In this document: positions 7,569 to 62,461 of the stretch, in pieces
How positions within the stretch are numbered: position 1 is the first letter of the stretch
Layout: each line of letters begins with the position of its first letter
Assembly (NCBI GenBank): GCA_001805445.1
Contig: MHGF01000036.1
Span: 7,526-71,525, forward strand
DNA: 64,000 nucleotides
Reading direction: 5' to 3'
Source: Omnitrophica WOR_2 bacterium GWF2_43_52
Lineage (GTDB): Bacteria; Omnitrophota; Gorgyraeia; Gygaellales; UBA12090
Translations under genes and position numbers: made by a program
Notes under the pieces: generated by a model
What the model was told of the DNA's origin: nothing
The model's input: only the letters and a program-made list of their open reading frames with translations
Databases searched by the model: none

Positions 7569-7614
7569 AAAAGACGCTTTTTCAGTGATAACTATTGTAA
7601 GAAGGGGGGATGCT

Positions 7615-11268: not shown

Positions 11269-11280
11269 ATAAGGATACCT

Positions 11281-13652: not shown

Positions 13653-13726
13653 CAGCTGTCAGCTTTCGGCTGTCAGCTATCAGCTTTGAGCTGAAAGCCG
13701 GATGCTGATAGCTGAAGGCTGAAAAA

Positions 13727-40719: not shown

Positions 40720-41912
40720 ATATATGTTTCCTATCCAGAGAGTATCCTCCTAAGATTATTGGTGGCGTTGGTACCTATACCTATGAAATGGCCCAGGCAT
40801 TACGCGCGTTAGGCCATGGAGTGTACATCATTACAGAGGCTATCGGTGAGGAAAGGGAATTGTATGAGGATGGCATTTATGTAATGAGAATCGCCTGCCG
40901 GGATATTCCCTTATTTGCTCCTTTTAGAAATGTGCTCAAGATGACCATTGATCGTTTAGAATACAGTTATGCCGTATCAAAAAAGTTGAGCCGCATAGTT
41001 GAAAAATATAAAATAGATATCGTTGAGAGCTGTGAAGCTCGGGCTGAAGGATTTTGGTATTATCTGTTTCATCGTAAGCCGCCTTTAATCATTAAATTGC
41101 ATACACCAGAAAAGATAGCATTTAGGCTTGACCGCATAACTGAGAGCTTAGATGTAAAAATAAGAAATTTATTAGAAGAATGGTGGATTCTTCGGGCAGA
41201 TAAGATAGTCGCGGTAACAAAGGCCATAGCGGGATTAGTATCGCACTATTACCATATTGAGTTAAAAGATTTATCTCCAGTATATTATCCTCTCAACGCG
41301 GAACTGTTTAAGCCAAATGGTCACCTATCAAAGAATACGAATCCGGTAGTTTTATATGCGGGAAGGCTAGAGGTAAGAAAAGGTGTGCTCATATTATTGG
41401 AGGCAATCCCTTTGGTTATTGCAGAATTTCCCAATGTTCAATTCTATTTTGTTGGTGCCGATGCAGGCATTAAATATCGCATGGATAAAATGATTGATAG
41501 GCTTGGATGTGCAAAAAATATCACTTTTGTTAGTCAAGTAAGTAGAGAGGAAATGGTCTCTTATTATCGGTCTTCCGATATATGCGTGTTCCCCTCACTA
41601 TGGGAAAATTTTGCTTTTACTGCGCTTGAAGCTATGGCATGCGCTAAGACAGTGATCGTTAGCCGTACAGGAGGATTCCTTGAAATGATTGATGACGGGG
41701 TAACTGGTATTTTTTGTGACCCCGAGGATCCCTGCGATGTAGCGGAAAAGATGCGATGCGCTCTAAGAGATGCCTCATTTAGAGCGTCTATAGGGGAGCA
41801 AGCAAGGGCCAGAGTATTACAGAGGTATGCCCCAAGAAAAAAGGCAAAGGAGATGGCTGAAATTTATCAAAAAATGCTTAGCAGAAATAATCATGATAAA
41901 AAGGGAGAGTAG
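40716..41912 (+). CDS. Glycosyltransferase family 4
   Basis: REYPPKIIGGVGTYTYEMAQAL N-terminus; C-terminal E..FAFTALEAMACAKTVIVSRTGG. Confidence 0.85.
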   Translation: MNICFLSREYPPKIIGGVGTYTYEMAQALRALGHGVYIITEAIGEERELYEDGIYVMRIACRDIPLFAPFRNVLKMTIDRLEYSYAVSKKLSRIVEKYKIDIVESCEARAEGFWYYLFHRKPPLIIKLHTPEKIAFRLDRITESLDVKIRNLLEEWWILRADKIVAVTKAIAGLVSHYYHIELKDLSPVYYPLNAELFKPNGHLSKNTNPVVLYAGRLEVRKGVLILLEAIPLVIAEFPNVQFYFVGADAGIKYRMDKMIDRLGCAKNITFVSQVSREEMVSYYRSSDICVFPSLWENFAFTALEAMACAKTVIVSRTGGFLEMIDDGVTGIFCDPEDPCDVAEKMRCALRDASFRASIGEQARARVLQRYAPRKKAKEMAEIYQKMLSRNNHDKKGE

Positions 41913-44697: not shown

Positions 44698-46053
44698 ATG
44701 AAAATCATGCAAGTAACGCACAGTTTCCCGCCGTATACCTTTGCCGGAACTGAGGTATATGCATATGCCTTAGCAGTAGAGTTGTCTAAAAGGCATAGGG
44801 TTTCAGTAGTGTTCAGGGTCAATCAGCCTCATGAAAAAGAATATGCGCTATCTGTTAATAATCGCGGAGATTTTGCAACGTACAGTATTAATAGAACATT
44901 TAATACGTGCGATTCTTTCGGCCAGACATATGATGACCACATAGTATCTGCTATAGGAGGGAGGCTTTTAGACGAAGTTAATCCCGATGTGGTGCATATC
45001 CAACATCTTTTATTCCTTTCTATAGGGATTATTAAGGAAGCTTGGAAAAGGAGGATACCTGTAGTTTTTACTCTCAATGATTACTGGTTAATGTGCCATA
45101 AGGGGCAGTTAATCAAAAACGATTTTAAGGTTTGTCAAGGATATACGATAGATGGCTGTAGAGTGTGTTTGGAAGCGCAGTTGAGTATAACAAAATATAG
45201 CATTTTCTTTTATAATCTTCTAAGGAGGCATTTGCCCGTTCAGCTAACACAGTTTGTAAAGAGCCTTTATATACTATTTGCCAGAAAAACATTTTTGAGC
45301 CAGAGGAAATCCTCCACGTTAATTTTAAAGCGTTATGCGTCTATGCAGGCAATAACTTCACGTATCGACTATTTTGTCGCGCCATCTCAGTTCATCAAAA
45401 AGAAATTCATCGCATTCGGGTTCCCTCAGGAAAAGATATTTTTCTTTTCCTATGGAATAAAACACCGAAGCGTAAGCCCTGGGGATAAAACTTATTCCCC
45501 TAATTTAAGAATAGGCTATATCGGGACGTTAATCCCGACGAAGGGGGTTAGTATTCTGATTTCCGCCTTTAGAAAGATTATTAAAAAGAATATCAGGCTC
45601 AGTATCTATGGGAAATTAGCCCCGTATGCTGGCTATGAAGCATATTATAGGCAGATTATTAAAAGTGCGCGCGATGAGAGAATTGCCTTCATGGGCCAAT
45701 TCGACAATAGCAAAATTTTTGATATATTAAGAAGTATCGATATTTTAGTTGTTCCTTCTCTGTGGCTAGAAAATTCCCCTTTGGTTATACATGAAGCCTT
45801 TATATCAAAAACGCCTGTTATCGCATCGCGAATCGGGGGGATCCCTGAGCTCATCTGTGATGGCATGAACGGTTTGCTTTTTAACCCCGGCGATGCCGAT
45901 GATTTAAGTGAGAAAATAAAGCAGGTTATGGAAAATCCTGAAATACTCGCGTGCATGAGAAGAAACATGCCGGCTATTAAAAGTATAGAAGAAAACGCTA
46001 TGGAAATGTTAGAGGTGTATAAGAAAGCATCTATGAATTGTGGCACGGTATGA
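44698..46053 (+). CDS. Glycosyltransferase family 4
   Basis: KIMQVTHSFPPYTFAGTEVYAYAL N-terminus; C-terminal E.SPLVIHEAFISKTPVIASRIGG. Confidence 0.8.
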   Translation: MKIMQVTHSFPPYTFAGTEVYAYALAVELSKRHRVSVVFRVNQPHEKEYALSVNNRGDFATYSINRTFNTCDSFGQTYDDHIVSAIGGRLLDEVNPDVVHIQHLLFLSIGIIKEAWKRRIPVVFTLNDYWLMCHKGQLIKNDFKVCQGYTIDGCRVCLEAQLSITKYSIFFYNLLRRHLPVQLTQFVKSLYILFARKTFLSQRKSSTLILKRYASMQAITSRIDYFVAPSQFIKKKFIAFGFPQEKIFFFSYGIKHRSVSPGDKTYSPNLRIGYIGTLIPTKGVSILISAFRKIIKKNIRLSIYGKLAPYAGYEAYYRQIIKSARDERIAFMGQFDNSKIFDILRSIDILVVPSLWLENSPLVIHEAFISKTPVIASRIGGIPELICDGMNGLLFNPGDADDLSEKIKQVMENPEILACMRRNMPAIKSIEENAMEMLEVYKKASMNCGTV

Positions 46054-47998: not shown

Positions 47999-49303
47999 AT
48001 GAAAGTCCTACTTCTAAAACCATGTTGGCCGTATCCTGTCGGAGATGATTTTATCTATAACCGAATATGGCCTCCTTTATGCTTAGCCAACTGCGCTGCC
48101 TTGTTGCTACGAGAGGGACATACGGTAAGAATATTCGACGCGCATGCAGAGAGGACTCCCGCGGATAAAATTAAAGAACATGTATATGGTTTTGATAAAA
48201 TATTTATAACTTCTTCAGCGTTAGACAGATGGCAGTGCCCAAATCTAAACATAGAGCCTTTTTTACGCGCAGCCCGTCTGATAAGAAAAGAAAACGACGA
48301 ACTCTATGTGATGGGTTATCATGGGACTGTAAATCCTGATGAAATCTTATCGCTGACAGGGGCGAAGGCGATTATTAGGGGGCAGCCAGAAATAGGCGTT
48401 TTAGAGATATGCCAGAATCAAAGTTTATCCCGTATAAAAGGTATCAGTTATAGAAGCAGCGGTAAAATAATATCTACTGCCGAGAGAGCTGTGATAGACT
48501 TGGATACTCTCCCTGTGCCCGCCTTTCACTTGGTTAATTTTAAGTATTATTTTTATGAAATATTAGGGAGCAACTTTGCGTTGTTTGAAGGCTCGCGAGG
48601 TTGTACGCATGGGTGTACATTTTGTTCTAAGGTAATGTTTGGAGTTACCTTTAGGCAGAAATCACCCATGAGGTTAATGGAAGAGATTGATAGAGCAGTC
48701 AGAGAATGTAAGATAAAAACAGGCTATTTTATAGATCTTGATTTTACGCTTAACAAGAAGTGGGTTGAAGAAGTCTGTAGCCTTCTTATAGAAAGAAACT
48801 ATGATTTTGAATGGTGCTGCCAGGCAAGGTTAGATGAAGTTGATGCGCCGCTGCTAAAGAAGATGAAACAGGCAAAGTGCCGGTTAATTCATTATGGCGT
48901 GGAAACAGCCTCTGATAAGATGTTGAGGCTGGCGCATAAAGGCTTAACTACTGAGAGAATAACAGAGGGGATACGATTGACGCAGGAAGCAGGGATTAAA
49001 ACATTGTGCTTCTTTATGATAGGGTTATCATCTGATAGTAGGGAAGAAATGAGGCAGAATATGGCGTTTGCCCATAGATTAAATCCTACGTACCTGCATT
49101 ATCATCTTGCCGTTTCTTATGGCGCATCCTGTATTCAGGAGAATAGCCTTAATCTTCCATGCGATGTGAGCAGGCGAATGATTAAGCACGCCATTATGAA
49201 ATTCTATCTTCGCCCAAGGTATATAATCCAGCGTCTGAAGCAGAAGGAAGATAGAAAAGCCATGCTCAGGCAGTTGAAACTATTATATGCATATATACGA
49301 TGA
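47999..49303 (+). CDS. B12-binding domain radical SAM protein (class B radical SAM)
   Basis: N-terminal cobalamin-binding Rossmann-like domain; radical SAM triad GCTHGCTFC; 434 aa. Confidence 0.8.
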   Translation: MKVLLLKPCWPYPVGDDFIYNRIWPPLCLANCAALLLREGHTVRIFDAHAERTPADKIKEHVYGFDKIFITSSALDRWQCPNLNIEPFLRAARLIRKENDELYVMGYHGTVNPDEILSLTGAKAIIRGQPEIGVLEICQNQSLSRIKGISYRSSGKIISTAERAVIDLDTLPVPAFHLVNFKYYFYEILGSNFALFEGSRGCTHGCTFCSKVMFGVTFRQKSPMRLMEEIDRAVRECKIKTGYFIDLDFTLNKKWVEEVCSLLIERNYDFEWCCQARLDEVDAPLLKKMKQAKCRLIHYGVETASDKMLRLAHKGLTTERITEGIRLTQEAGIKTLCFFMIGLSSDSREEMRQNMAFAHRLNPTYLHYHLAVSYGASCIQENSLNLPCDVSRRMIKHAIMKFYLRPRYIIQRLKQKEDRKAMLRQLKLLYAYIR

Positions 49304-51084
49304 ACATAAAGAGCGGCTTGTTGGAAAAGAAAAGCATGGCATTGAGTATTTTTAGTATTGCAGCCATTATCTTTTGTTCCCCTATTTTTCATAACTTTAG
49401 CTATTTAGGGCAGATGGATTGGGACCAGTTTACCTTTTGGAATGCGGTTCCCAGAAAAACGGTCCTGACGTATCATCAATTTCCTCTTTGGAATCCTTAT
49501 GGTAACGGCGGAAATGTTCTCTTAGCCCATCCCCACTCCTCATTTTTATCTCCCTTTTACCTTTTCGTATTATTTTTTGGCCCGGTAACCGGGATAAAAT
49601 TGGAAATTATAGTTCTTTTAATTATCGGAATGCTTGGGATGTTTTTATTGTCTAACCATATGGGGGGGAAAGGAATATCCTCATATGCGCCATCTTTTGT
49701 TTTTATGTTAAGCTCTATTTATCCGCTGCATTTAACTGAAGGCCATGTGGAGTGGTTAGGGATGGCATTTGTCCCATGGTTATTTTTATCTTATCTAAAG
49801 AGTATAGATAATAAGAACTATGTATATGTGGCACTATTACTTTTTGCGGTAATGGTATTAGGGGGTGGCGTTTATATCTCAGTAATAATGGCTGCATTTC
49901 TTACGCTCTATTCATTTGTTATGATTGTGCGAGAAAAAAGAATCGTGTGGCTTAGAAATATAGCTATTATCTTCGCGGGCGTTTTCCTGCTCTCTTCGAT
50001 TAAATTGTTCCCTATGCTTGAGTTTCTAACTCATTCCCCCAGAACTATTGAATCTACGGAAAATATAAGCCCGTTGTTACTTCCTACTATTTTGTTAGAT
50101 AGAAATCAAGGTGGTTTATATGCTCAGACTAAATGGAGTGCTCCTGATAAGAAGGCTTTTGTCGGGAACAATGTAGTGATAGATTACGGTTGGCATGAAT
50201 ATGGCGCATATATAGGAATTATCCCCCTGCTGTTATTTGCCGGGGGCATATTTTTTAGCTTTAAAAAACAATGGCCATTCCTCTTGATTGGAATTATTTT
50301 TCTGATACTGAGCTTGGGGCGAGGTTTTCCCATTGATCTATGGCGGATACTGCATTTTTTACCAATCTATGATTCCCTCCATGTACCTTCAAGATTAATC
50401 CTTATTTTTATTTTCGTTCTTTCCATCTTTTCCGGTTTATGTTTATCAAAAATTGAAGAAAACATGAAAAAAATGAATACAGGCAGGGCAGGAGTATTTC
50501 TGATAGTTTTGTTCATTTTTTTAGATTTATATTTAGTGAATGGCTTTATTTTAAAGCAGGCATTTGTAATTGCACCAATAAGAGTTGAATATAACGCAGA
50601 ATTTAAGCAAAGGTATGATTCCGTTAATTTTTATCCCGCTATTAGCCGCAGCGCTATGTATCCCATCTTTTTAAGCAATAGCGGGATACTTGACGCGTAT
50701 GAAGTGATAAATGTTAAAAAGGGAAATGTTCTTGCAGTTAAGGATCCTGGGTATAGAGGGGAGGTTTATTTAGCTGACGGCAAAGGTAGCGCAACGATTA
50801 CTTCTTTTTCTCCCAATAGAATAGTTGTAAATGTTAACGCTCATGACGTGGATACTTTAGTTTTGAACCAGAATTATTATAAAGGTTGGAGGCTAAAAGG
50901 TTGTCATGATCCCAGAGTAAGATCTTTTAATGGCCTTATTGCAGCACATGTTGATTCTTCGGATAAGAAAGCAATATTTTTTTATATGCCAAAGAGTTTC
51001 ATCATAGGGTGCCTTGTGACCGGTGCAAGCATAATAACAATATTTTTATTTTTGTTAAAGAGTAAACTGGCAAGCAATGATTAA
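49300..51084 (+). CDS. Polytopic membrane protein, GT-C-like (YfhO-like) candidate glycosyltransferase or polymerase
   Basis: About 12 TM helices; conserved FPLWNPYGNGG loop; C-terminal soluble beta-rich domain; 594 aa. Confidence 0.45.
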   Translation: MNIKSGLLEKKSMALSIFSIAAIIFCSPIFHNFSYLGQMDWDQFTFWNAVPRKTVLTYHQFPLWNPYGNGGNVLLAHPHSSFLSPFYLFVLFFGPVTGIKLEIIVLLIIGMLGMFLLSNHMGGKGISSYAPSFVFMLSSIYPLHLTEGHVEWLGMAFVPWLFLSYLKSIDNKNYVYVALLLFAVMVLGGGVYISVIMAAFLTLYSFVMIVREKRIVWLRNIAIIFAGVFLLSSIKLFPMLEFLTHSPRTIESTENISPLLLPTILLDRNQGGLYAQTKWSAPDKKAFVGNNVVIDYGWHEYGAYIGIIPLLLFAGGIFFSFKKQWPFLLIGIIFLILSLGRGFPIDLWRILHFLPIYDSLHVPSRLILIFIFVLSIFSGLCLSKIEENMKKMNTGRAGVFLIVLFIFLDLYLVNGFILKQAFVIAPIRVEYNAEFKQRYDSVNFYPAISRSAMYPIFLSNSGILDAYEVINVKKGNVLAVKDPGYRGEVYLADGKGSATITSFSPNRIVVNVNAHDVDTLVLNQNYYKGWRLKGCHDPRVRSFNGLIAAHVDSSDKKAIFFYMPKSFIIGCLVTGASIITIFLFLLKSKLASND

Positions 51085-52594
51085 CAAAAAATTCAATAAA
51101 ATATGCCTTATAAGGATGGATTCGCGTATTTTAAAGATAACAGCAGGACATCCTAAACATTTTTCTCCGCCTTTTACGCTAAAATATATACAGGCATTAT
51201 TGGCTAAAAATGAAAATTTCCAGGTTAAGCTGATTGATTGCATAGTTACTTCGGTAGATTTGAAAAATCTTCTTGATCGTTCCCTGGACTGGGGCACAGA
51301 GGTAATGGTTGTTTCTAGCACTACGCATAGCAGGGAACTGGCAATGCAATTCTGTTCGTTGGTTAAGATGAAAAAGGATGTTTTTGTTGTAGCTGTTGGG
51401 CAAGGAGCAACCGCTCATTCTTTTGATTATTGCTTTCCATCGTCTCCTTTTGATGTTGTGTTGCGAGGTGAATCTGAGCAAGAGGTAATTTCTTTGCTTG
51501 AATCTTTGAATAGTGGGGAAAACCAGCAGCAGATCAGAGAAACATACCGTAAGAAGTTGAATGCAAAGGAAGTTACTCTAATTTGGGATTTGGATTCTTT
51601 GCCGTTTCCAGATTATGAGGATAGAGAAATAGAAGCCTACCGCTTTTTTTATCCTATAAGGACATGGAAAAGGCTTCGTTGGGGCCATATTCTTTCGTCC
51701 CGCGGATGCCATCACGGCTGCATATTCTGTTCTCAAATAATCAGGGAAACGTACGGGAATAAAATGAGATTAAGGGACCCTGTGAAGGTAGTTGATGAAA
51801 TTGAATATTTAATGGGCAAGGGCATTAACATTATTGCATTTGATGATGATAATTTTACTGCTTCAGCGCAGCATGTTGTTGCAATATCCTCGGAATTAAT
51901 AAAAAGAAAATTGAAAATTCGGTGGATTGCTCATGCGCGGGCAGATGAACTCAGTATTCCTCTCATGCATCTTATGAAAAAAGCGGGCTGCGTTTTATTG
52001 CGTTTTGGTATTGAATCGGCTTCAGCTCGAATTATCAGGATTCTTAAGAAAAATACCCGGGATACCAATTGGATAGAGACAATTGAAAATATCCTAAGGC
52101 ATTGCAGAAAAACTGGAATCGCAACGCATGCCTTATTTATGGTTGGGAACCCTACTGAGACGTCGGAAGAAATAAAAGCAACGATACAATTAGCTGAAAT
52201 ATTGAAGCCGGATTTAATACAGGTGCATTTTTTTACTCCTTATCCCGGTTCAGTTATATATGAAAATGTCTGTAATCACGTAATCAGAAACCATCAATTG
52301 TCGCAGATGCATCATTATGCTTTCCCAAAGGTAAATTTAGCGTATGTTGATAGTGATGATTTAATGATGTTGCGTGCTCTATTCTATAGAAGGTTTCTAT
52401 TGAGGCCGTCTTTTTTGCTCAAGCATTTTTCCCGATATTTTTTGTATTACCTTGCCAATGGCAGATGTAGATATGCGTTATTAAAGGTTTTTAAAATTTT
52501 ATTTCAACGCAGAGCTGGAAAGCGGTCCCAATTCTGCAGGAAAAGAGACGGTGGTTTTTTGGCGCTCGATGCGCTTAATAACGGGATTATATGA
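51077..52594 (+). CDS. B12-binding domain radical SAM protein
   Basis: Triad GCHHGCIFC, B12-binding N-domain; 505 aa. Confidence 0.8.
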   Translation: MINKKFNKICLIRMDSRILKITAGHPKHFSPPFTLKYIQALLAKNENFQVKLIDCIVTSVDLKNLLDRSLDWGTEVMVVSSTTHSRELAMQFCSLVKMKKDVFVVAVGQGATAHSFDYCFPSSPFDVVLRGESEQEVISLLESLNSGENQQQIRETYRKKLNAKEVTLIWDLDSLPFPDYEDREIEAYRFFYPIRTWKRLRWGHILSSRGCHHGCIFCSQIIRETYGNKMRLRDPVKVVDEIEYLMGKGINIIAFDDDNFTASAQHVVAISSELIKRKLKIRWIAHARADELSIPLMHLMKKAGCVLLRFGIESASARIIRILKKNTRDTNWIETIENILRHCRKTGIATHALFMVGNPTETSEEIKATIQLAEILKPDLIQVHFFTPYPGSVIYENVCNHVIRNHQLSQMHHYAFPKVNLAYVDSDDLMMLRALFYRRFLLRPSFLLKHFSRYFLYYLANGRCRYALLKVFKILFQRRAGKRSQFCRKRDGGFLALDALNNGII

Positions 52595-54039
52595 AAGTTG
52601 CATTAATTTTTCCGACATATGCCCATAAAATATTTACTGAAAATTTGAGCACTGTTGATGAGGAATTTTGTGTCGCTCCGCCGATAATACTGGCCTATGT
52701 GGCTGCGATTCTTGAAAAGCATGGTCACGCGGTAATGTTACTTGATGCAAAAGCATTGACTCTTTCAAAAGAGGAGGCGTTGAAAAGGTTTGTGGCGTTT
52801 GAGCCGGATATATTAGGTTTTAGGGCCGAAACATACTATTTCCATGAAGCATTAGACTGGATCCGCTATCTTAAGGCTCATCTTGGAGTTCCGGTAATAG
52901 CAGGAGGAATTAATTTGACCTTGTATCCTCTCGAAGTTCTTTCTCACCCGGAGATTGATTATGGAATTATTGGTGAGGCTTTTGAGTCTCTCCCGCGGTT
53001 TCTTTCCGCTTTAGAAAATGGCGATGACTATTCGCGCCTGTCCGGCGTCGCCTATAAGGATGATGAAAATAAAGTAGTGATAAATCCTCCTGAGCATAAG
53101 GTGTACGATTTTGATTTATACCCCTATCCTGCACGGCATCTCCTGCCAAACGATAAATATTATTCTTTTGTGTCGCAGCGGAAAAATTTTACCATAATGC
53201 TCACGAGCACGGGGTGCCCTTATGGATGTTTATTTTGCGCGATTCCTTTTTCTTATAGGGTAAGGACTCCTGAAAATGTTGTTGATGAGATTGAAGTTTG
53301 TTATCAAGATTTCGGAGTGCGGGAAATCGATTTTTTTGATGCGGTATTGTTTATGCCCAGAGAGCGCATACGGGAGATTTTTCGCTTAATTCAAAGACGC
53401 AAATTAGATATAGAGTGGTCAGCCCGCTCAAGGATTGATGTAGTCGATGAGCAACTGCTCAAAGAGGCTGCACGGGCAGGATGCAGGCAAATATACTACG
53501 GCATAGAATCTGCAGATCAGCAAATTCTTGATAGTGTGAAAAAGGGGATACAGCCAAAAGCCGTAATTGAAACGATAAAAATTTCTAAGAAGTTTGGTAT
53601 ACGGACTATGGGTTTTTTTATGGTGGGTAACCCCGGCGAAACCAAGGAAAGCGTGCGTAAAACTATAGAATTCTCAAAAACCTTAGGTTTAGATTTCATC
53701 CAGGTTTCGCGGACAATCCCAAAGCCAGGGACAGAACTTGATAATGCGATGATGAAGGTGAGCATGCGTGATTATTGGAGAATGCATGTGCAAGGTGAAG
53801 AAATAGCGCATAGATTGCCAACCCCATGGGTTAATTTAACTGAACAAGAAAAGGAGTCTTTGGCAAAGGAGTTCTATATAAAATTTTATTTTCGCCCAAG
53901 AATTATAGCGCAAAGGATACTGCAGTTGCGATCATGGGAGGAATTTATAAGGTACATCAGAGTTGCGTTGAAAATCATATTCCAGAAATCAGAATTAAGC
54001 TTGAGGCGTACGGGGAGCGAAATAAAAAACTATGAATAA
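52591..54039 (+). CDS. B12-binding domain radical SAM protein
   Basis: Triad GCPYGCLFC; 482 aa. Confidence 0.8.
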   Translation: MKVALIFPTYAHKIFTENLSTVDEEFCVAPPIILAYVAAILEKHGHAVMLLDAKALTLSKEEALKRFVAFEPDILGFRAETYYFHEALDWIRYLKAHLGVPVIAGGINLTLYPLEVLSHPEIDYGIIGEAFESLPRFLSALENGDDYSRLSGVAYKDDENKVVINPPEHKVYDFDLYPYPARHLLPNDKYYSFVSQRKNFTIMLTSTGCPYGCLFCAIPFSYRVRTPENVVDEIEVCYQDFGVREIDFFDAVLFMPRERIREIFRLIQRRKLDIEWSARSRIDVVDEQLLKEAARAGCRQIYYGIESADQQILDSVKKGIQPKAVIETIKISKKFGIRTMGFFMVGNPGETKESVRKTIEFSKTLGLDFIQVSRTIPKPGTELDNAMMKVSMRDYWRMHVQGEEIAHRLPTPWVNLTEQEKESLAKEFYIKFYFRPRIIAQRILQLRSWEEFIRYIRVALKIIFQKSELSLRRTGSEIKNYE

Positions 54040-54174
54040 AAGGAGTTTAAAGAACAGAAGCGCAATAGTGCCTTGTCAAATAATAAAAACCAAAACAGTG
54101 TAGCGGGGTGCGCGAGCTTTTTTTATGACGCTACTATGAGTCAACGCAGGGCGCTTGCGCTTTAAAAGGACAGA

Positions 54175-55626
54175 ATGCATAAACCGAATAAGGTTGTTTT
54201 TATCAGGTTCCCAAAAAACTTACAAAAAAAATCCCATCCGACTGAAACGGTTTGGCCTTTTTCCATAGGCATCGCAGGGACTATACTAAAGAGATTGGGC
54301 TTTTCCATAAAGATAATTGACCTTCAGGTTGAAGAAAATCAGAGATATGACAATGCCATGCAAGCTATTCTGAGCCTTGATATGGATATGCTTTTTGTCC
54401 AATATGAAACGCTTTCACTTTGTTTGGCTTCGTCTTTTTGCGCCCAGTTAAGAAAGGTAAAAGAAAATATTATTGTCATTGGCTTTGGACAGCATGCTTC
54501 TGCTCTTCCTCGTGAACTTATTGAGAGCCATGGGGCAGATATCTGTATCACTACTGACCTTGAGTTTGTTATAGAGGAATTAGTTCATGCTATTCAAAAT
54601 GATAGTCTCGTAAAACTTAAAAATATCGCTTACAAGGATTGCGAGAAGGTTATTATTAAAGAAAGCGCTGTGCCTGATTTTCATCCGGATTCTCTTCCAT
54701 TTGTTGATCCATCCCTTTTTCAGCTTACTCGATACAGGCGAAAAAAGTTTCCCAAGCCATTCTTTTGGGGAAAGGACTGGGGTTTCGTCAGAACAAGCTT
54801 AGGGTGTCCCTACCATTGTATATTCTGTTCGCCTCTTCTAAGGCATTCCATAGAGAAGGCATACAGGGCCCATTCAATAGGGTATATTTATAGGCAAATT
54901 AAATATTACAAAGAAGAGTTTGGGTTAAGGACTTTTTCTATGGAAGACGATATATTCTCCATTGATGAAGACAGGACCCTGCGTCTTTGCGATGCGCTCA
55001 GAAGCCTAAGAATAAGATGGGTTGTTGATGGGGCCAGGGCCGATAGGTTATCCGCGGCGTTATTAAAAATGATGAAGCAGGCCGGATGTTATGGAATAGG
55101 TATTGGTATCGAGTCAGGAAGTCAGAATATTTTGGATAGTTTAGGAAAGCAGCAAAACAGGGAAAAGATAAAAGAATGCGCCCTTACTATAAAAAAAACA
55201 GGCATGCTGTTGGTCGGGTACGTTATGGTGGGAGCTCCCCGTGAGACCGAGCATGAGGTAGAAGAAACCTTTCGCTTGATACGTGAAATAGCTCCCCATG
55301 TCCTCTACGCGCACTATTTTATCCCTTACCCAGGCTCACAGGCATATGAACTATTTAAAGAAAAGCTTTTTCTTGCGCATATGACGCATTATAGATACCC
55401 TCGAGTGAATTTTAGCAATATGGATGCTATAGTATTAAGGAATTGCATGAAAACGCTCTATGCCCGCTATTATTTATCTTTTAGCTACCTAAAAGAATAT
55501 ATAACAGGGAGATTGAAATATGCGCTCTTTGATATACATGAGGTAATGTTACTTAAAGATGCGATTGTATTTATTATGCGTGGAAATCAAAAAGATGAGA
55601 CTATCGAAAAAATTGAAAGCTTGTAA
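54175..55626 (+). CDS. B12-binding domain radical SAM protein
   Basis: Triad GCPYHCIFC; 483 aa. Confidence 0.8.
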   Translation: MHKPNKVVFIRFPKNLQKKSHPTETVWPFSIGIAGTILKRLGFSIKIIDLQVEENQRYDNAMQAILSLDMDMLFVQYETLSLCLASSFCAQLRKVKENIIVIGFGQHASALPRELIESHGADICITTDLEFVIEELVHAIQNDSLVKLKNIAYKDCEKVIIKESAVPDFHPDSLPFVDPSLFQLTRYRRKKFPKPFFWGKDWGFVRTSLGCPYHCIFCSPLLRHSIEKAYRAHSIGYIYRQIKYYKEEFGLRTFSMEDDIFSIDEDRTLRLCDALRSLRIRWVVDGARADRLSAALLKMMKQAGCYGIGIGIESGSQNILDSLGKQQNREKIKECALTIKKTGMLLVGYVMVGAPRETEHEVEETFRLIREIAPHVLYAHYFIPYPGSQAYELFKEKLFLAHMTHYRYPRVNFSNMDAIVLRNCMKTLYARYYLSFSYLKEYITGRLKYALFDIHEVMLLKDAIVFIMRGNQKDETIEKIESL

Positions 55627-56629
55627 GGAGATTTTTAAGATAAAGATGTTCGGGAAGAGAATGCCTTTAGCAGTGACCTGGAGTATTACCGATAGATGTA
55701 ATTTTCAGTGTTACTATTGCGGCAGGTGGAAGATGAGTACGCAGGAGCTCTCAACAGATGATGCGATGGCGCTTATATCGGGTCTTGCAAACGCGCGGTG
55801 CCTGAGAATAGTCTTTGGGGGAGGGGAACCGTTATTGAGAAAGGACATAGGGCTATTAATTGATTTCTGTAAGAAAAAGGGGATTTCTACCGGCCTGATC
55901 TCAAACGGTTATTTTCTCGCAGAAAGGATAGACGAAATAAGGAATATTGATACGTTGGCATTGAGCATTGACGGAATTGGAGGAGTGTGCGATTTTATAA
56001 GGGGTACGTCAGGAGCCTATGAAAATGTCGTGGCGGCCATTAAAATAGCGAGGAAGAAAAAAATAAGAGTAATCCTGAATACTGTTTTAACAAGGTATAA
56101 TCTGGATCAGGTAGATTTGATTATAGAGTTTGCCACGAAACATGGTGCAGGGGTGATGTTTGGCCCTGTGAGCTCTATTCACTTCGGAGGCAGCGCAATA
56201 GATTCCCTAGTACCCGGCAAATCGGAATTTCGAAATATCATTGATACATTAGTTGGATACAAAAAAGATAAAAAACCTATACTTAATTCTCTTGCCGCGT
56301 TACATTATATGCATGATTGGCCATATTATAAGCAGATACCTTGTTATGCGGGAAGGGTTTTTTGTCATATTTCAGCAAACGGCAGTTTTTATCCCTGCGT
56401 GGCGCTGGAGGGCAGCGTTACGGCATCTTGCCTGCGTCATGATTTTAGTGAAGTTCTGGAGGCAGTTTCGCATAAGACAAGGCATTGTAATGGATGTTGG
56501 TGCACAGGGACATTAGAGTTTAACCAAATGTTATCCCTCAAACTAACGGCATTGATGAGTATTTTACATTTCGCTACATCTCCGCCAAAAATTAGGAACC
56601 GAAGAATTCATGAGCCATGTAAGATTTAA
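55595..56629 (+). CDS. Radical SAM/SPASM-domain protein, paralog 1 of 5
   Basis: PLAVTWSITDRCNFQCYYCG; GGGEPLL; C-terminal Cys cluster CYAGRVFCH...YPC...CNGCWCTGTLEFN. Start chosen at MRLSKKL by alignment with paralogs. Confidence 0.75.
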   Translation: MRLSKKLKACKEIFKIKMFGKRMPLAVTWSITDRCNFQCYYCGRWKMSTQELSTDDAMALISGLANARCLRIVFGGGEPLLRKDIGLLIDFCKKKGISTGLISNGYFLAERIDEIRNIDTLALSIDGIGGVCDFIRGTSGAYENVVAAIKIARKKKIRVILNTVLTRYNLDQVDLIIEFATKHGAGVMFGPVSSIHFGGSAIDSLVPGKSEFRNIIDTLVGYKKDKKPILNSLAALHYMHDWPYYKQIPCYAGRVFCHISANGSFYPCVALEGSVTASCLRHDFSEVLEAVSHKTRHCNGCWCTGTLEFNQMLSLKLTALMSILHFATSPPKIRNRRIHEPCKI

Positions 56630-56695
56630 TGATTTCTGCGGAAGAGGCATGATAGGTAATGAGGAAAGGATGAGGCAGGCCTTTATCGGGTAGTT

Positions 56696-58276: not shown

Positions 58277-58311
58277 GGTTTTTCTTTAGCGTAGCACGTT
58301 GCTAAATAAAA

Positions 58312-59364
58312 ATGTTTTATTCTGCGAGCATGGATGTAAAGGGATTGGCCAACCTGAAGGATAAGATGCGGCGTATTGTATCCTTTTCTTTGCCTATTTT
58401 GAAAGCGCGGTTTCTTAAGCGGAAAATACCGTTATTTGTAGGCTGGGAATTGACTAATCGTTGTAATCTGAAATGTAGATATTGCGGTGTCGCTCACGCG
58501 GTAAGGGGAGGGGAATTAGACACGCAACGCATTTTGTTAATGGTAGATGGATTAAAACTGTTAGGTACACGGTTTATCAGTTTTACCGGCGGCGAGCCTT
58601 TGTTACGGCCTGATATAGGTTTAATTATAGATTATTGCAGGCAAAAGAATGTTTTTACTTCTCTCAATTCAAATGGAATTCTGGTGAAACAAAAGATTTC
58701 TGAAATTAAGAATGTTAATTGCGTCTGTCTTAGTTTAGATGGAGCAGAGGAAATCCATGATTCTATACGAGGAGCGGGGGTCTTTAAAGCGGTAATAGAG
58801 GCTGCCAGGATTATACAAAGAACAAACATCCCGTTAAAATTTTTTGTCACATTAACAGGTATTAATGTAAATCAAATTGATTTCCTAATAAACATAGCTA
58901 TGGAATATAATGCGGTTTTAGTCTTCCAGCCATCGGTACAAAATAAGCTTTATTCTAACGAGGTTAATGAGATATGCCTCTCGCGCGCAGAGAACGAAAT
59001 GGTTTTTAGACAATTGATATGCCGCAAGAGAAGACTAAGGAAAATGGTGATAGCGAATTCATACATGAATTTAGCGCATCTTAGCCATTGGCCTCATCCT
59101 CGATATATCCGTTGCGCGTCAGGGCATATCACGGGCCGTATCAAGAGTAACGGCGATTTTGCCCCATGCAACCGTTATGCGCTTCAAACAGCCGCAGGCG
59201 CGTCTCTGAGCCCGATGGATTTGAAGAGAAAATACCTTGCTCTTCAGAATATTTCCTGCGAAGAATGTTGGTGCGCTAATCGGGTAGAATTAAACTTGCT
59301 CTTTGCCCTGCAGTTAGAGCCAATTATTAATAGCATTAGGTATTTAGCGAGCAATAAAAAATAG
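58312..59364 (+). CDS. Radical SAM/SPASM-domain protein, paralog 2
   Basis: IPLFVGWELTNRCNLKCRYCG; FTGGEPLL; C-terminal CxxCWC. Confidence 0.75.
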   Translation: MFYSASMDVKGLANLKDKMRRIVSFSLPILKARFLKRKIPLFVGWELTNRCNLKCRYCGVAHAVRGGELDTQRILLMVDGLKLLGTRFISFTGGEPLLRPDIGLIIDYCRQKNVFTSLNSNGILVKQKISEIKNVNCVCLSLDGAEEIHDSIRGAGVFKAVIEAARIIQRTNIPLKFFVTLTGINVNQIDFLINIAMEYNAVLVFQPSVQNKLYSNEVNEICLSRAENEMVFRQLICRKRRLRKMVIANSYMNLAHLSHWPHPRYIRCASGHITGRIKSNGDFAPCNRYALQTAAGASLSPMDLKRKYLALQNISCEECWCANRVELNLLFALQLEPIINSIRYLASNKK

Positions 59365-59435
59365 AATGAAAAAGCAGCTATGCAATGAATGCTGGCAGAC
59401 AATAGCAGGGGTGAATCCTGCTAAGGAGGCTGTGC

Positions 59436-60440
59436 GTGAAATTGCGGAATAAGTTGAAGATCGCCAAAGAAACCTTAGAAGTAAAATTTCTTAAAAAGAA
59501 AATTCCTATAGCGGTGACATGGGCGATTACCAATACCTGTAATTTGCAATGTAGATATTGCGGAAGGTGGAAAACAAATTCTGATGAGCTGTCAACGCAG
59601 GAGGCGAAGATAATTATCGAACAGCTTGCTCATGCTGGGTGCATGAGAATATCTTTTTTAGGAGGAGAACCTTTATTGAGAAAGGATATTGGAGATTTAA
59701 TTAATTTCTGTAAGGCGAAAGGTATTTCTATCAGTTTGATTTCGAATGGATATTTTGTTGCAGAAAAAATAAGCAAAATAAGCAATATTGATTTGCTGGA
59801 ATTAAGCATCGATGGAATTAATGATGAGGCAAATTTCTTAAGAGGCAAGGGTCTGTATGAAAGAGTGCTCACCGCGTTTAACTATGCTCGCGGAGCTGGG
59901 GTAAAAACGGTATTCAAGACGGTGTTGACAAAATATAATTTACATCACATAGGATCTATCCTGGAATTTGCCGTTAAGTGCGAAACGGGGGTTATGTTTG
60001 GCCCTGTAAGTTCTCTTCATTTCGCGAATGAAGAAATAAAGGAATTATTCCCCGATAGGGGAGAATTCAGAAGGGCTATAGAAATGCTTATGTGTGAAAA
60101 GAAACGAGGCAAGCCTATAATTAATTCAATGTATGCCTTACGGTATATGAGGGATTGGCCATATCCGCATCAGTGCCCTTGTTTTGCCGGCAGGGCGTTT
60201 TGCCATATAGCGCCGAATGGCATGGTGTATCCTTGTGCTGCTTTGGAAGGCAAAATAGAACCTTTCGTTTTTAAGGAATATGATTTTAAGAATATACTTC
60301 GTATTCTTTCCCGCGCTGATTTTAAGTGTGATGGCTGCTGGTGCAAGGGGACATTAGAATTTAATTACCTCCTTGCGTTGAAGCCATCTGCGCTACTATC
60401 GCTCTCAGATTGGATGGTAGTCTATAAAGAATTGATGTAG
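59436..60440 (+). CDS. Radical SAM/SPASM-domain protein, paralog 3
   Basis: IPIAVTWAITNTCNLQCRYCG; LGGEPLL; CPCFAGRAFCH...YPC...CDGCWCKGTLEFN. Confidence 0.75.
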   Translation: MKLRNKLKIAKETLEVKFLKKKIPIAVTWAITNTCNLQCRYCGRWKTNSDELSTQEAKIIIEQLAHAGCMRISFLGGEPLLRKDIGDLINFCKAKGISISLISNGYFVAEKISKISNIDLLELSIDGINDEANFLRGKGLYERVLTAFNYARGAGVKTVFKTVLTKYNLHHIGSILEFAVKCETGVMFGPVSSLHFANEEIKELFPDRGEFRRAIEMLMCEKKRGKPIINSMYALRYMRDWPYPHQCPCFAGRAFCHIAPNGMVYPCAALEGKIEPFVFKEYDFKNILRILSRADFKCDGCWCKGTLEFNYLLALKPSALLSLSDWMVVYKELM

Positions 60441-60445
60441 AAATT

Positions 60446-61441
60446 ATGGTGATGACATTAAGGAAGAAGATTGGGTTCGCGATCCCATTGTTAAATTTTC
60501 TTTTATTTAAGAAGAAAATCCCTTTTTTCATCGGATGGATGTTAACGGCACGGTGCAATAAGCAATGTAAATATTGCAGTATTTGGGATAGACGGGAGGC
60601 CGAATTGGATACCGGCACTATTATAGCTGTCGTTAGACAATTATCGCGGTTAGGAACCAAGTTTATTTCATTTTCAGGCGGCGAACCATTGTTAAGAGAT
60701 GATATAGGGGAAATAATCGATTGTGTTTCGCACCATAAAATGTATGTAAAAATCAATTCAAACGGGGCGTTGTTTGCCCAAAAGATACACAGGCTCAGGA
60801 AATTGAACGAAATAAAGCTCAGCCTTGATGGCCCAGAGGAAATACAGGATGAATTACGAGGAAAGGGTTCTTACCGGGAAGCTATAGCTGCGGCTACTGA
60901 CGCTAAAAGAAATATGATCAAGGTCAGTTTTAACACAGTTCTCTCAGCGCATAATCTTACCTGCCTTGGTTTTATATTGGATATCGCTAGGAAATTTGAG
61001 GCAAAAGTCACTTTTCAACCAGCAACTCCTTTTTTACTGGGAGGCGATAAAGTGAATCCCGTTACGCCTTTGCAGAATGACTACAGACGGGCAATAGCCA
61101 TACTCATCAATACCAAGAAAATGAATAAGCATATAGCTAATTCATTTTCAGGGTTAGCGTATCTTTATCGCTGGCCCTATGCGGTAAGAAAAATGCATTG
61201 TTACGGAGGGCGCTTTGGCTGCCGCATAGAGGTTAATGGTGCTCTTTCCCATTGCGGCGTATATCGTCATAAGGAAGATAGTGGTAATTTACAGAATTGC
61301 AAGCACTCAGATTTTAAACTCGCGTTCCAGAGGCTCGCGGAGATTTATTGTAATGAGTGCTGGTGCGCTCCGGATATCGAGATAAATTCTCTAATTTCGT
61401 TGCAACCGGAAGTTTTATGGAATAGTTTATTTTCTGGTTAG
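60446..61441 (+). CDS. Radical SAM/SPASM-domain protein, paralog 4
   Basis: IPFFIGWMLTARCNKQCKYCS; SGGEPLL; CYGGRFGC...CNECWC. Confidence 0.75.
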   Translation: MVMTLRKKIGFAIPLLNFLLFKKKIPFFIGWMLTARCNKQCKYCSIWDRREAELDTGTIIAVVRQLSRLGTKFISFSGGEPLLRDDIGEIIDCVSHHKMYVKINSNGALFAQKIHRLRKLNEIKLSLDGPEEIQDELRGKGSYREAIAAATDAKRNMIKVSFNTVLSAHNLTCLGFILDIARKFEAKVTFQPATPFLLGGDKVNPVTPLQNDYRRAIAILINTKKMNKHIANSFSGLAYLYRWPYAVRKMHCYGGRFGCRIEVNGALSHCGVYRHKEDSGNLQNCKHSDFKLAFQRLAEIYCNECWCAPDIEINSLISLQPEVLWNSLFSG

Positions 61442-61453
61442 GAATACTGCGCT

Positions 61454-62461
61454 ATGAGATTTCAGGACACTATGAGCTATTTAATCAGGTTATTGAAGAT
61501 CAAATTCTTTAATAATGGATTTCCCTTTGTTGTAAGATGGGATATTACGGCGCGTTGCCCCATGCAATGCAGATATTGCGATATATGGAAGCTAAAGATA
61601 AAAGAGTTAAATACCGCCACAATCCTGAGAATTATAGATGAAATGGCGCAGGAGGGAGTAAAAAAAATTTCTTTTTCCGGAGGGGAACCTTTGCTGAGGG
61701 AAGATATCTGCGAGATCGTGCATTATACCAAGGCAAAAGGAATATCCGCAGAGATTAATTCTACAGGGTATTCATTTGCCGATAAGGCGGAAAGATTGAA
61801 ATCTCTGGATTTAATAAAACTAAGCCTTGATGGCCCAAAAGAAATACATGATGTAGTACGAGGCAGGGAAGGGGCGTATGATTCTGTTATTGATGCTGCT
61901 TTGGCTGCGAAGAAACAAAGGATACCATTTAGGTTTTGCGTTACCCTGTCAGGGTATAATATCCAGTATGTTGGCTTTTTACTGCAGTTAGCCAGAGATT
62001 GTGAAGCGAAGATTGTTTTTCAGCCGTTAAAAGATATCAGGTATTTGAAGCATTGCAGTTTTATCTTTAAAACGGAGGAACAGCTTTTCCCTGCTCCTGA
62101 GCAGTTTCAGAAAGCGATACATATGCTTTTAAAATGTTGTAAAGAAGAAAGGCGCCTGATAAGCAATAGCCCTCAAACTTTGAGGCATATATATTATTGG
62201 CCAAAGTATGCAAAGCTGAAATGTTGGGCAGGCAAGATTTTTTGCATGATAAGTCCATCCGGCGAGATTTCGCCCTGTGATCGTCTTTTTTATGATGTGC
62301 AACTGCCTAACTGCGCGCAGACATCCTTTCGTCAAGCAGTTACAATGATGCCGCGTTTGCCTTTTTGTGAAGGGTGTGGTTTTTGGGGGTCATTGGTATT
62401 GAATTACGCTGCCAATTTTAAAGCTGATTTGGAATTGCTGAGAAAGGCAGCTCAATGCTGA
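61454..62461 (+). CDS. Radical SAM/SPASM-domain protein, paralog 5
   Basis: FPFVVRWDITARCPMQCRYCD; SGGEPLL; CWAGKIFC...CEGCGFWG. Confidence 0.75.
   Translation: MRFQDTMSYLIRLLKIKFFNNGFPFVVRWDITARCPMQCRYCDIWKLKIKELNTATILRIIDEMAQEGVKKISFSGGEPLLREDICEIVHYTKAKGISAEINSTGYSFADKAERLKSLDLIKLSLDGPKEIHDVVRGREGAYDSVIDAALAAKKQRIPFRFCVTLSGYNIQYVGFLLQLARDCEAKIVFQPLKDIRYLKHCSFIFKTEEQLFPAPEQFQKAIHMLLKCCKEERRLISNSPQTLRHIYYWPKYAKLKCWAGKIFCMISPSGEISPCDRLFYDVQLPNCAQTSFRQAVTMMPRLPFCEGCGFWGSLVLNYAANFKADLELLRKAAQC

Follow-up and report, generated by a model that had tools for sequence, protein, structure and literature searches.

Class-B-type radical SAM proteins in an Omnitrophota envelope-glycan locus: candidate enzymes for tailoring sugars at the lipid-carrier stage

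Here, we analysed a 64,000-nucleotide stretch of DNA (the window) from Omnitrophica WOR_2 bacterium GWF2_43_52, an uncultured groundwater bacterium of the Omnitrophota (GenBank assembly GCA_001805445.1, contig MHGF01000036.1, positions 7,526 to 71,525 of the forward strand). Exact matches to its sequence lie in Omnitrophica WOR_2 metagenome-assembled genomes from Rifle groundwater (GCA_003499645.1, contig DNSN01000016.1), on which grounds an anammox origin, suspected from sample names ('ANAN16') and a ladderane-type model match, was rejected. The analysis centers on four genes for radical S-adenosylmethionine (SAM) proteins of class-B type, which an initial annotation of this DNA had placed around a YfhO-like membrane protein of the GT-C class. 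All four are present on the plus strand in the open reading frame (ORF) listing, starting at 47999, 51077, 52591 and 54175, and are named A, B, C and D hereafter. The CxxxCxxC motifs that had been reported for them proved exact, i.e. GCTHGCTFC (C202) in A, GCHHGCIFC (C211) in B, GCPYGCLFC (C209) in C and GCPYHCIFC (C211) in D. From A through the GT-C gene and B to C, stop and start codons overlap (ATGA at A/GT-C, ATGATTAA at GT-C/B and TATGA at B/C), and these four genes thus form one translationally coupled unit. Among the entries that we looked up, NCBI uses the label 'hypothetical protein' for A, B, D, the GT-C protein, a fusion of a radical SAM protein with a GT4 glycosyltransferase (GT) and the first of two DUF2079 proteins (Table 1).

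The Pfam model Radical_SAM (PF04055) matched A at E = 1.5e-20, B at 4e-17, C at 5.7e-24 and D at 5.2e-17, in all cases above the gathering score (63-86 bits; cut-off 29.5 bits). The N-terminal cobalamin-binding domain that had been ascribed to each protein held up in part: all four possess a domain of the B12-binding type, but the curated cut-off of Pfam B12-binding (PF02310; 32.1 bits) is passed by C alone (61.0 bits, compared to 21.4 for A, 30.4 for B and 25.9 for D). The HpnJ and BchE models align to A-D over approximately residues 25-450, and a profile-profile alignment of the A and C families by hhalign (probability 100%, 403 columns) shows homology from the first residue. Judged from sequence, A-D are members of the radical SAM superfamily with a class-B (B12-binding-domain) architecture. 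Any two of them are 25-29% identical, and separate orthologs occur elsewhere for each of the paralogs, in agreement with the earlier view that they diverged from each other and do not stem from a recent duplication. In an alignment of the A family, three cysteines besides the radical SAM triad are invariant (C80, C274 and C294), of which C80 sits in an invariant W-Q-C-P motif within the N-terminal 'B12-binding' domain; they might hold an auxiliary metal site or a further cofactor, in place of cobalamin or alongside it.

Profile searches against the B12-radical SAM subfamilies did not place A-D in any named family, as every NCBIfam model, among them BchE, HpnJ, HpnR, BzaD and AprD4, scored far below its cut-off. 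The best models were those of HpnJ, BchE, BzaD, a 'ladder' lipid radical SAM protein, the P-methylases PhpK and Sden_1168, the glutamine C-methylase QCMT and AprD4. HpnJ (TIGR03471), the top NCBIfam match of B, C and D, reached 131-175 bits against a cut-off of 577.6; the corresponding values were 99-148 against 481 for BchE (TIGR02026), 50-98 against 650 for HpnR (TIGR04367) and, over the radical SAM core only, 62-104 against 500 for AprD4 (NF033070). That A-D are known cofactor or hopanoid enzymes (BchE, BzaD, HpnJ or HpnR) would fit the ranking, since these enzymes supply the top-scoring models, but their 50-175 bits have to be read against cut-offs of 450-650. Moreover, no bacteriochlorophyll (bch), benzimidazole or hopanoid (shc/hpn) genes were found in the window or in the related loci described below, and the window holds no partner genes of the BchE, HpnJ, HpnR or BzaD pathways. 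We therefore give this explanation, by which the initial annotation had proposed that its reading could be overturned, a negligible chance.

The nearest solved structure by sequence is for all four proteins that of AprD4 (6fd2; E = 1.6e-10 to 2.7e-25), a radical SAM 1,2-diol dehydratase of apramycin biosynthesis, with an identity of ~20-22% and a match limited to approximately residues 165-395. The structure of the cobalamin-dependent QCMT (9CCB) ranked second in the PDB search for A and C, third for B and fourth for D. An AlphaFold2 model of C, obtained with a predicted local distance difference test (pLDDT) score of 91.9, superposed over its whole length with AprD4 in Foldseek (template modelling scores of 0.72/0.76), as well as with TsrM (0.68), QCMT, OxsB, CysS and TokK. 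According to a 2026 review, AprD4 does not bind cobalamin, though it clusters with class-B enzymes (PMC12931638).

The protein encoded between A and B comprises ~12 predicted transmembrane helices. Its sole Pfam match is to the N-terminal GT-C domain GT-C_AftD, at a sub-threshold 22.1 bits (cut-off 26). Among eight members of its family drawn from related loci, seven match GT-C_AftD (best E = 2.3e-8), three match YfhO (best E = 1.3e-5) and one matches PTPS_related. The motif D40-W41-D42 directly follows the first transmembrane helix, and W41 and D42 are invariant in eight homologs, one of them archaeal. As is typical of the GT-C superfamily, the protein is polytopic and its first extracytoplasmic loop bears an acidic motif. 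YfhO (PF09586) did not match the window protein at E ≤ 0.1; precomputed annotations as 'YfhO (weak)' exist for proteins in two related loci (L093 and L175). Of the former designation 'YfhO-like GT-C', the second half is thus supported, whereas membership in YfhO is not, and 'YfhO-like' appears, on sequence grounds, to be an acceptable approximation. A single-sequence AlphaFold model of the protein was too poor for use (pLDDT 41).

These genes belong to a glycan locus of more than 40 kb, which starts at 32580, continues to the end of the window and beyond, and has all its genes on the plus strand; positions 1-32.5 kb are occupied by housekeeping genes. Ten radical SAM domains lie in a ~20-kb part of the glycan locus, which also has at least four GT-C-class membrane proteins. 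Its first part encodes the complete set for an ABC transporter-dependent polysaccharide pathway, i.e. a polyprenyl-phosphate initiating transferase, Wzm and Wzt with its Wzt_C domain, and the NCBIfam equivalog scores of these WecA-like, Wzm and Wzt proteins are all below cut-off (87.7 bits for WecA). The flavin adenine dinucleotide (FAD)-dependent oxidoreductase encoded next to them matches UDP-galactopyranose mutase weakly and in its N-terminal part. The 619-residue GT2 enzyme is not of the polyprenyl-phosphate-sugar synthase type, as it has no BLAST similarity to DPM1-like GT2 enzymes. For the 651-residue protein upstream of A, which is probably exported, neither a Pfam nor an NCBIfam match was obtained, and no homologs were noticed near A or C orthologs elsewhere. 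Beyond the window, the contig encodes a protein with 14 transmembrane helices, a PMT_2 (ArnT-like) GT-C enzyme, a DegT aminotransferase and two further large proteins. Promoter and terminator scans gave counts not higher than expected from shuffled sequence. The previously proposed glycan, rather than cofactor, context of A-D is therefore borne out by the WecA-like initiator, Wzm and Wzt with Wzt_C, the GT4 and GT2 enzymes and the several GT-C proteins around them, and so is the arrangement in which the polytopic GT-C-like protein is interleaved with radical SAM genes and preceded by GT4 genes.

Table 1 Genes of the glycan locus in the order of the window. Small radical SAM proteins are numbered r5-r9.
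Feature	Position	Strand	Evidence
GT4 glycosyltransferase, opens the glycan locus right behind housekeeping coaX	32580..33761	+	Pfam Glycos_transf_1, E = 3.9e-39
WecA/MraY-family polyprenyl-phosphate sugar-1-phosphate transferase (initiating)	33745..34719	+	Pfam Glycos_transf_4, E = 2.1e-28; ~11 transmembrane helices
FAD-dependent oxidoreductase	34719..36032	+	Pfam Amino_oxidase and NAD_binding_8
Wzm-like ABC-2 permease, multiple transmembrane helices	36034..36855	+	NCBIfam galactan export permease Wzm/RfbD, E = 2.3e-14, below cut-off
Wzt ABC ATPase with C-terminal glycan-binding Wzt_C	36859..38595	+	Pfam ABC_tran and Wzt_C, E = 2.3e-31
GT2 glycosyltransferase, 619 residues	38860..40719	+	Pfam Glycos_transf_2; best NCBIfam matches MftF, PgaC
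GT4 glycosyltransferase	40716..41912	+	Pfam Glycos_transf_1, E = 1.5e-38
Fusion of radical SAM and SPASM with a complete GT4, 812 residues	42171..44609	+	Pfam Radical_SAM, SPASM, Glyco_transf_4, Glycos_transf_1
GT4 glycosyltransferase	44698..46053	+	Pfam
651-residue protein with one N-terminal hydrophobic (transmembrane/signal) segment	46040..47995	+	Transmembrane prediction
Class-B-type radical SAM A, 434 residues	47999..49303	+	Pfam, NCBIfam, motif
Polytopic GT-C-class membrane protein (AftD/YfhO subgroup), 594 residues	49300..51084	+	Pfam, transmembrane prediction, motif
Class-B-type radical SAM B, 505 residues	51077..52594	+	Pfam, NCBIfam, motif
Class-B radical SAM C, 482 residues	52591..54039	+	Pfam, NCBIfam, motif, AlphaFold2
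Class-B-type radical SAM D, 483 residues	54175..55626	+	Pfam, NCBIfam, motif
Small radical SAM r5, twitch/SPASM-like C-terminal cysteine set	55559..56629	+	Pfam, NCBIfam, motif, alignment
DUF2079 polytopic membrane protein, ~8 transmembrane helices	56696..58276	+	Pfam DUF2079, E = 1.4e-33
Small radical SAM paralog r6	58312..59364	+	Pfam
Small radical SAM paralog r7	59436..60440	+	Pfam
Small radical SAM paralog r8	60446..61441	+	Pfam
Small radical SAM paralog r9	61454..62461	+	Pfam
Second DUF2079 membrane protein, runs past the window end	62489..64000	+	

Leaving self-matches aside, the closest homologs of C share 51-69% identity with it and are mostly ~740 residues long, with an extra GT2 domain at their C-terminus. 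One such fusion protein, P0025 (745 residues), comes from a complete Omnitrophota genome (CP070837.1). Such C::GT2 fusions fall into at least 50 protein clusters from Omnitrophota, the Planctomycetes-Verrucomicrobia-Chlamydiae (PVC) group, Elusimicrobiota and a metagenome-assembled genome (MAG) labelled Lokiarchaeia. The five best NCBIfam matches of the fused GT2 (PpgS, AglJ, PgfS, a haloarchaeal dolichyl-phosphate-hexose transferase and ArnC), while below cut-off, are all polyprenyl-phosphate-sugar synthases. We examined 80 C-family loci from GTDB species-representative genomes, 74 of them with enough downstream DNA. By the depositors' own taxonomic labels, 27 derive from Omnitrophota, ~8 from Elusimicrobiota, ~9 from 'Planctomycet-' and ~13 from Myxococcota/Deltaproteobacteria, and the rest include ~5 of Oligoflexia/Bdellovibrio type, ~7 archaeal ones (four labelled DPANN) and two from Patescibacteria. 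In 29/74 loci, the C ortholog is either fused to a GT2 or lies directly next to one. A small radical SAM protein of the r5-r9 family directly neighbors the C ortholog in 19 out of 79, the common order being C - GT2 - r9-like. At E ≤ 1e-30, the C-family profile retrieved 19,249 representatives of 50%-identity clusters, a figure that takes in the class-B superfamily as a whole; above 340 bits, there are more than 100 distinct clusters. The matches also include giant proteins of 900-2,600 residues with two to six class-B radical SAM domains, and five of them related to C (P0446, P0463, P0469, P0493 and P0498; 1,879-2,633 residues) contain three to six such stretches in tandem. Radical SAM and glycosyltransferase domains have been reported to co-occur in giant Omnitrophota proteins (2026 preprint, bioRxiv 10.64898/2026.06.07.730766), and the tandem class-B proteins may be linked to these giant multi-enzyme proteins.

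The identity of the fusion partners, a GT2 in the C family and a GT4 in the window, bears on the idea that the radical SAM proteins modify membrane lipids (by Grs, Hbs, Hgm, Mss or ladderane-type chemistry) and not sugars. Homologs of Hbs and Mss have been reported from Omnitrophota MAGs (bioRxiv 10.1101/2023.10.20.563219), and the 'lipid biosynthesis B12-binding/radical SAM' model TIGR04072 assigns 89-138 bits to A-D. These scores are, however, far below the cut-off of 360 bits, the GDGT-MAS structure (7tol) is matched marginally by the small radical SAM proteins (E ~3e-3 to 6e-3), and the locus lacks lipid-synthesis genes. With glycosyltransferases as fusion partners, a lipid substrate in this sense is very improbable.

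Homologs of A are stand-alone proteins of 430-455 residues from Omnitrophota, Planctomycetota and Aenigmatarchaeota, among them orthologs at 45-53% identity. For this family, 80 metagenome loci were examined: the A ortholog has a short GT2, of the type that is fused to C, directly downstream in 29 of 68 cases and on one side or the other in 42 of 78. The link of A and C orthologs to GT2 enzymes resembling polyprenyl-phosphate-sugar synthases, by fusion or adjacency, again favors a glycan context. B - DegT - A - GT2 is a recurrent arrangement (L112, L114/115, L133 and L136), and a contig from an aenigmarchaeon encodes an A homolog followed by an overlapping YfhO-like membrane protein, as in the window. 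The D family is narrow, with about nine clusters above 50% identity, and those named by source are all from Omnitrophota.

The closest relative of the module as a whole is locus L175, where the C protein is 78% identical to its counterpart in the window, the GT-C protein 69%, B 61%, D 60% and A 50%. Its gene order reads PMT_2 - PMT_2 - A - GT-C - B - C - radical SAM/SPASM - GT9 - GT2 - DegT - radical SAM - D - radical SAM (three genes), and its ArnC-like GT2 (248 residues) is 43% identical to the A-associated GT2. As the order A - GT-C - B - C is kept in a different Omnitrophota genome, at protein identities of 50-79%, we conclude that the cluster is not a chance juxtaposition. Between C and D, L175 carries the GT9, the ArnC-like GT2, the DegT gene and two radical SAM genes (positions 11127-14376 of that locus) where the window has a gap of 135 nucleotides (54040-54174), so that the locus must have been rearranged or trimmed. 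In locus L174 (Omnitrophota, GCA_028719045.1), C and D are adjacent as in the window; there, the order is CobC - CobU - CobT - CobS - one further gene - TonB-dependent receptor - GT9 - C - D, followed by DegT - PMT_2 - tetratricopeptide repeat protein - DUF2079 (two genes) - GT2 - radical SAM (two genes). In a further locus, L057, we found PMT_2 - DegT - radical SAM - DegT - radical SAM - radical SAM - A - DUF3108-like - C. The conserved neighborhood of these radical SAM families thus consists of a short GT2 of the polyprenyl phosphate-loading type, DegT, small twitch-type radical SAM proteins and GT-C transferases.

Such partners are not what one would expect if the class-B and SPASM enzymes matured a ribosomally synthesized and post-translationally modified peptide (RiPP) that is then glycosylated. 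SPASM/twitch enzymes are often peptide maturases, and ApyD, rSAM_ocin_1 and PqqE/SkfB-like models do match moderately. Nevertheless, the scores of the RiPP models all fall far short of the cut-offs, a peptidase or exporter of the RiPP type is absent, and the window offers no plausible precursor, as its sole intergenic gaps in this region (41913-42170 and 54040-54174) hold short, unremarkable ORFs. No conserved short ORF turned up beside A or C orthologs in 160 loci either, although no systematic test for one was made. Peptide maturation therefore has a minute probability.

Domain identities, gene order, translational coupling, fusions and adjacency counts are direct observations; for the substrate stage, the acceptor and the chemistry of A-D we infer the following. 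As the best, reasonably probable reading, A-D would be anciently diverged class-B-type radical SAM enzymes that tailor sugars at the lipid-carrier stage in an envelope glycan locus, before these sugars are transferred by GT-C enzymes. GT-C enzymes such as ArnT, YfhO and AftD take polyprenyl-phosphate-sugars as donors, which makes periplasmic glycosylation of the Gtr, CsbB-YfhO and Arn kind the most economical model. Modification on the carrier also has parallels: deformylation of undecaprenyl-phosphate-4-formamido-arabinose (Und-P-Ara4FN) by ArnD and epimerisation of decaprenyl-phosphate-ribose by DprE1/E2 both precede GT-C transfer. In hopanoid biosynthesis, the glycosyltransferase HpnI and then HpnK and the putative radical SAM enzyme HpnJ act on lipid-linked glucosamine, and the substrate of calditol synthase is likewise a lipid-linked sugar, a hexose (PMC13459092).

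By homology or analogy to these systems, a pathway can be outlined. The WecA-like enzyme would prime polyprenyl phosphate, on which the cytoplasmic GT4 and GT2 enzymes would assemble a polymer; Wzm/Wzt would export it, with Wzt_C reading a terminal modification. In parallel, single sugars would be placed on polyprenyl phosphate by a DPM1/ArnC-like GT2 and remodelled by radical chemistry, just before or after loading, by the class-B and the small twitch-type radical SAM enzymes, to which DegT transamination might contribute in many of the relatives. The modified lipid-linked sugars would then be flipped across the membrane and transferred by GT-C enzymes (the 49300 protein, the two DUF2079 proteins and PMT_2) to an acceptor that could be the exported glycan, lipopolysaccharide (LPS) or a surface protein.

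The enzyme inventory also resembles the tailoring sets of the butirosin, gentamicin and apramycin pathways, which employ GT4 enzymes, DegT, twitch radical SAM dehydrogenases and class-B radical SAM proteins, and with AprD4 as the closest structure and GT4 and DegT enzymes at hand, the product might be a secreted, aminoglycoside-like small glycoside instead of an envelope polymer. Yet the WecA-like protein, Wzm and Wzt with Wzt_C, the four or more GT-C proteins and the LPS-type GT9 in relatives point to lipid-linked envelope glycans, no sugar-phosphate cyclase of the 2-deoxy-scyllo-inosose synthase type appears among the Pfam results of the window, and the small radical SAM proteins did not match BtrN in the PDB searches. 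A product of this kind is thus highly unlikely.

Several observations weigh against tailoring of lipid-linked sugars by cobalamin-dependent enzymes. Neither the window nor the 10 kb that follow it yielded a polyprenyl-phosphate-sugar-synthase GT2, even at E = 10; the partner must therefore be encoded elsewhere in the genome, or the GT2 at 38860 substitutes for it. Likewise, no GtrA/ArnE-type flippase was identified and no small polytopic ORF is evident in the densely packed locus, although no dedicated search was made. Homologs of the 49300-type GT-C protein adjoin A or C orthologs in a minority of loci only. The C::GT2 fusion does not give the order of reactions and fits a radical SAM enzyme that acts on a nucleotide sugar before lipid transfer equally well. 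As to the cofactor, cobalamin binding by A-D is a prediction for which C alone clears the Pfam threshold, and the nearest solved structure belongs to an enzyme that does not bind cobalamin. An Rfam scan of the window revealed no cobalamin riboswitch, and cobalamin salvage genes adjoin the module in just one of ~170 loci.

This one locus is L174, in which genes for CobC-like, CobU, CobT, CobS, ABC ATPase and TonB-dependent receptor proteins (positions 1-6092) lie directly upstream of GT9 and the C ortholog. Being confined to L174, the association is anecdotal and possibly a coincidence. Within the C family, conservation of the N-terminal domain is very strong, G105-G106 being among many invariant residues, and this argues for a bound ligand.

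With regard to the chemistry, the initial annotation had implied multiple radical methylations or related rearrangements. Our preference, a tentative one, is for cobalamin-dependent C-methylation at unactivated sugar carbons by at least some of A-D, favored by the class-B architecture, the conserved N-terminal domain and the cobalamin salvage genes of L174. Methylation is nonetheless weakened as a general expectation by the cobalamin-independent diol dehydratase AprD4 as nearest structure, and the hedge towards rearrangements has to stay. Alternative chemistries are an AprD4-like dehydration to a keto-deoxy sugar that DegT would aminate, favored by the structural neighbor and the recurrent DegT genes, and a rearrangement of the HpnJ type. 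Along these lines, A-D could keep the envelope-glycan role but be AprD4-like or HpnJ-like radical dehydratases or rearrangement enzymes, neither cobalamin-dependent methylases nor active on lipid-linked monosaccharides; they would act on nucleotide sugars or on the assembled polymer and yield keto-deoxy sugars, from which DegT would make deoxy-amino sugars. AprD4 is the best structure for all four by sequence and for C by fold and works without cobalamin (PMC12931638), HpnJ is the top NCBIfam match for B, C and D, and ordinary class-I methyltransferases occur in related loci. DegT, moreover, recurs beside the module in L112, L114/115, L133, L136, L057 (twice), L174 and L175 and downstream of the window. 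On the other hand, the sequence matches to AprD4 span the radical SAM core only, while the full-length matches are HpnJ, BchE and BzaD, and the AprD4 equivalog score is low. Together with the ligand suggested by the C-family N-terminal domain and the salvage and uptake genes abutting the module in L174, this leaves us to regard dehydratases or rearrangement enzymes acting at these other stages as a rather unlikely, though sizeable, alternative.

Tailoring at the lipid-carrier stage, the reading we favor, has partial precedents in several known systems. HpnI/HpnK/HpnJ and the calditol synthase Cds share its logic, in which a hexose or hexosamine is first attached to a membrane lipid by a glycosyltransferase and then remodelled in its lipid-linked form by a radical SAM enzyme, and HpnI/HpnJ pair a glycosyltransferase with a class-B radical SAM protein as the C::GT2 fusion does. 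They differ in that A-D score far below the HpnJ cut-off (see above), hopanoid genes are missing and GT-C transferases follow in the window locus. Unlike in the hopanoid system, the lipid is probably a carrier and not the end product, since the partner GT2 resembles polyprenyl-phosphate-sugar synthases. AprD4 shares the two-domain architecture of A-D and has a sugar ring as its target, but it works without cobalamin, and its substrate is a soluble pseudo-disaccharide in an antibiotic pathway. To our knowledge, GenK, GenD1 and Fms7 are the only well-established class-B enzymes that methylate sugars. They are listed as cobalamin-dependent radical SAM C-methyltransferases of aminoglycoside sugars (PMC12931638) and resemble the proposed enzymes, by description and not by sequence, in C-methylating unactivated sugar carbons; they belong, however, to secondary-metabolite pathways with free pseudo-oligosaccharides as substrates.

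The systems GtrA/GtrB/GtrV, CsbB/GtcA/YfhO and Arn all follow the scheme of a cytoplasmic GT2 that forms a polyprenyl-phosphate-sugar, optional tailoring, flipping and GT-C transfer, and the window locus has GT-C, DUF2079, PMT_2 and DegT components. Related loci, which recall the Arn pathway (DegT-type ArnB, the GT2 ArnC, ArnD, ArnE/F and PMT_2-type ArnT), contain ArnC-like GT2, DegT, PMT_2 and GT9 genes. In contrast to Arn, radical SAM proteins replace the NAD-dependent chemistry of the ArnA type, and the GT2 is not in the visible part of this genome. The overall layout also resembles mycobacterial arabinogalactan synthesis (WecA, cytoplasmic galactan assembly, Wzm/Wzt and the periplasmic AftA-D/Emb enzymes using decaprenyl-phosphate-arabinose, which is formed by epimerisation on the lipid): 'galactan export' models are the only NCBIfam match of Wzm and the second of Wzt, and the GT-C protein matches AftD. 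All these matches are below cut-off, however, the phylum is unrelated, and radical SAM tailoring takes the place of DprE1/DprE2.

The substrates of characterised class-B radical SAM enzymes are mainly antibiotics, cofactors, peptides or proteins, and membrane lipids. In the literature, we found no description of class-B radical SAM proteins in envelope-glycan pathways or fused with polyprenyl-phosphate-sugar synthases. Sugar-tailoring radical SAM enzymes and three-component glycosylation are already known; new are their combination and the families involved. The coupling of radical SAM proteins with polyprenyl-phosphate-sugar synthases might, as we tentatively propose, reflect an unrecognised, widespread pathway that remodels sugars on or just before the lipid carrier for installation on the cell surface by GT-C enzymes, ranging over Omnitrophota, Elusimicrobiota, Myxococcota, Bdellovibrionota-type MAGs, Patescibacteria and DPANN archaea. 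Uncultured lineages of anaerobes would in that case bear undescribed surface sugars (by C-methylation, deoxygenation with amination or ring rearrangement), and the diversity of surface glycans would gain a new level of chemistry, the remodelling of envelope sugars without oxygen. The window locus, with its ten radical SAM and at least four GT-C-class genes, would then be an extreme case that builds several such sugars, and the pathway could account for a cobalamin demand of small-genome, possibly host-dependent Omnitrophota. The recurrent GT2 fusion provides a testable substrate hypothesis for thousands of genes annotated as 'hypothetical', 'BchE-like' or 'YgiQ-like' in uncultured anaerobes and DPANN archaea, and the C::GT2 proteins are ready candidates for in-vitro reconstitution.

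The small radical SAM proteins r5-r9 (55559-62461), which alternate with the two DUF2079 membrane proteins, are 31-54% identical to each other and have a twitch/SPASM-like set of C-terminal cysteines in common (C262, C280, C310 and C313). Among solved structures, they come closest to generic ones (PqqE, SkfB, viperin, BlsE and MoaA). A role in anti-phage defence was considered and rejected: the small proteins match prokaryotic viperin models over the generic radical SAM core only (positions 2-156 of 262), and the class-B proteins match only a weak candidate model. The radical SAM-SPASM::GT4 protein, with its CxxxCxxC motif at residue 25, provides a second and independent case in the locus of a radical SAM protein fused with a glycosyltransferase, and the members of its cluster with source names come from Omnitrophica MAGs only.

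The G+C content is 0.44-0.46 (~0.45) in the housekeeping half of the window and 0.37-0.41 (~0.39) in the glycan locus. The GC skew is positive across the whole window, and all genes of at least 150 residues outside overlaps are on the plus strand. Two tRNA genes (6778-6848 and 10110-10184, plus strand) are the sole Rfam matches in the window. Among the housekeeping genes, the ORF at 232-1554 (plus strand) encodes a MiaB/RimO-type methylthiotransferase (UPF0004 and Radical_SAM) that is unrelated to the glycan locus and not one of its ten radical SAM domains. The ORF at 7585-8391 (plus strand, GTG start, 268 residues) matches thymidylate synthase weakly and partially, in its C-terminal half (E = 1.6e-10), and may encode a divergent ThyA-like or dCMP-hydroxymethylase-like enzyme.

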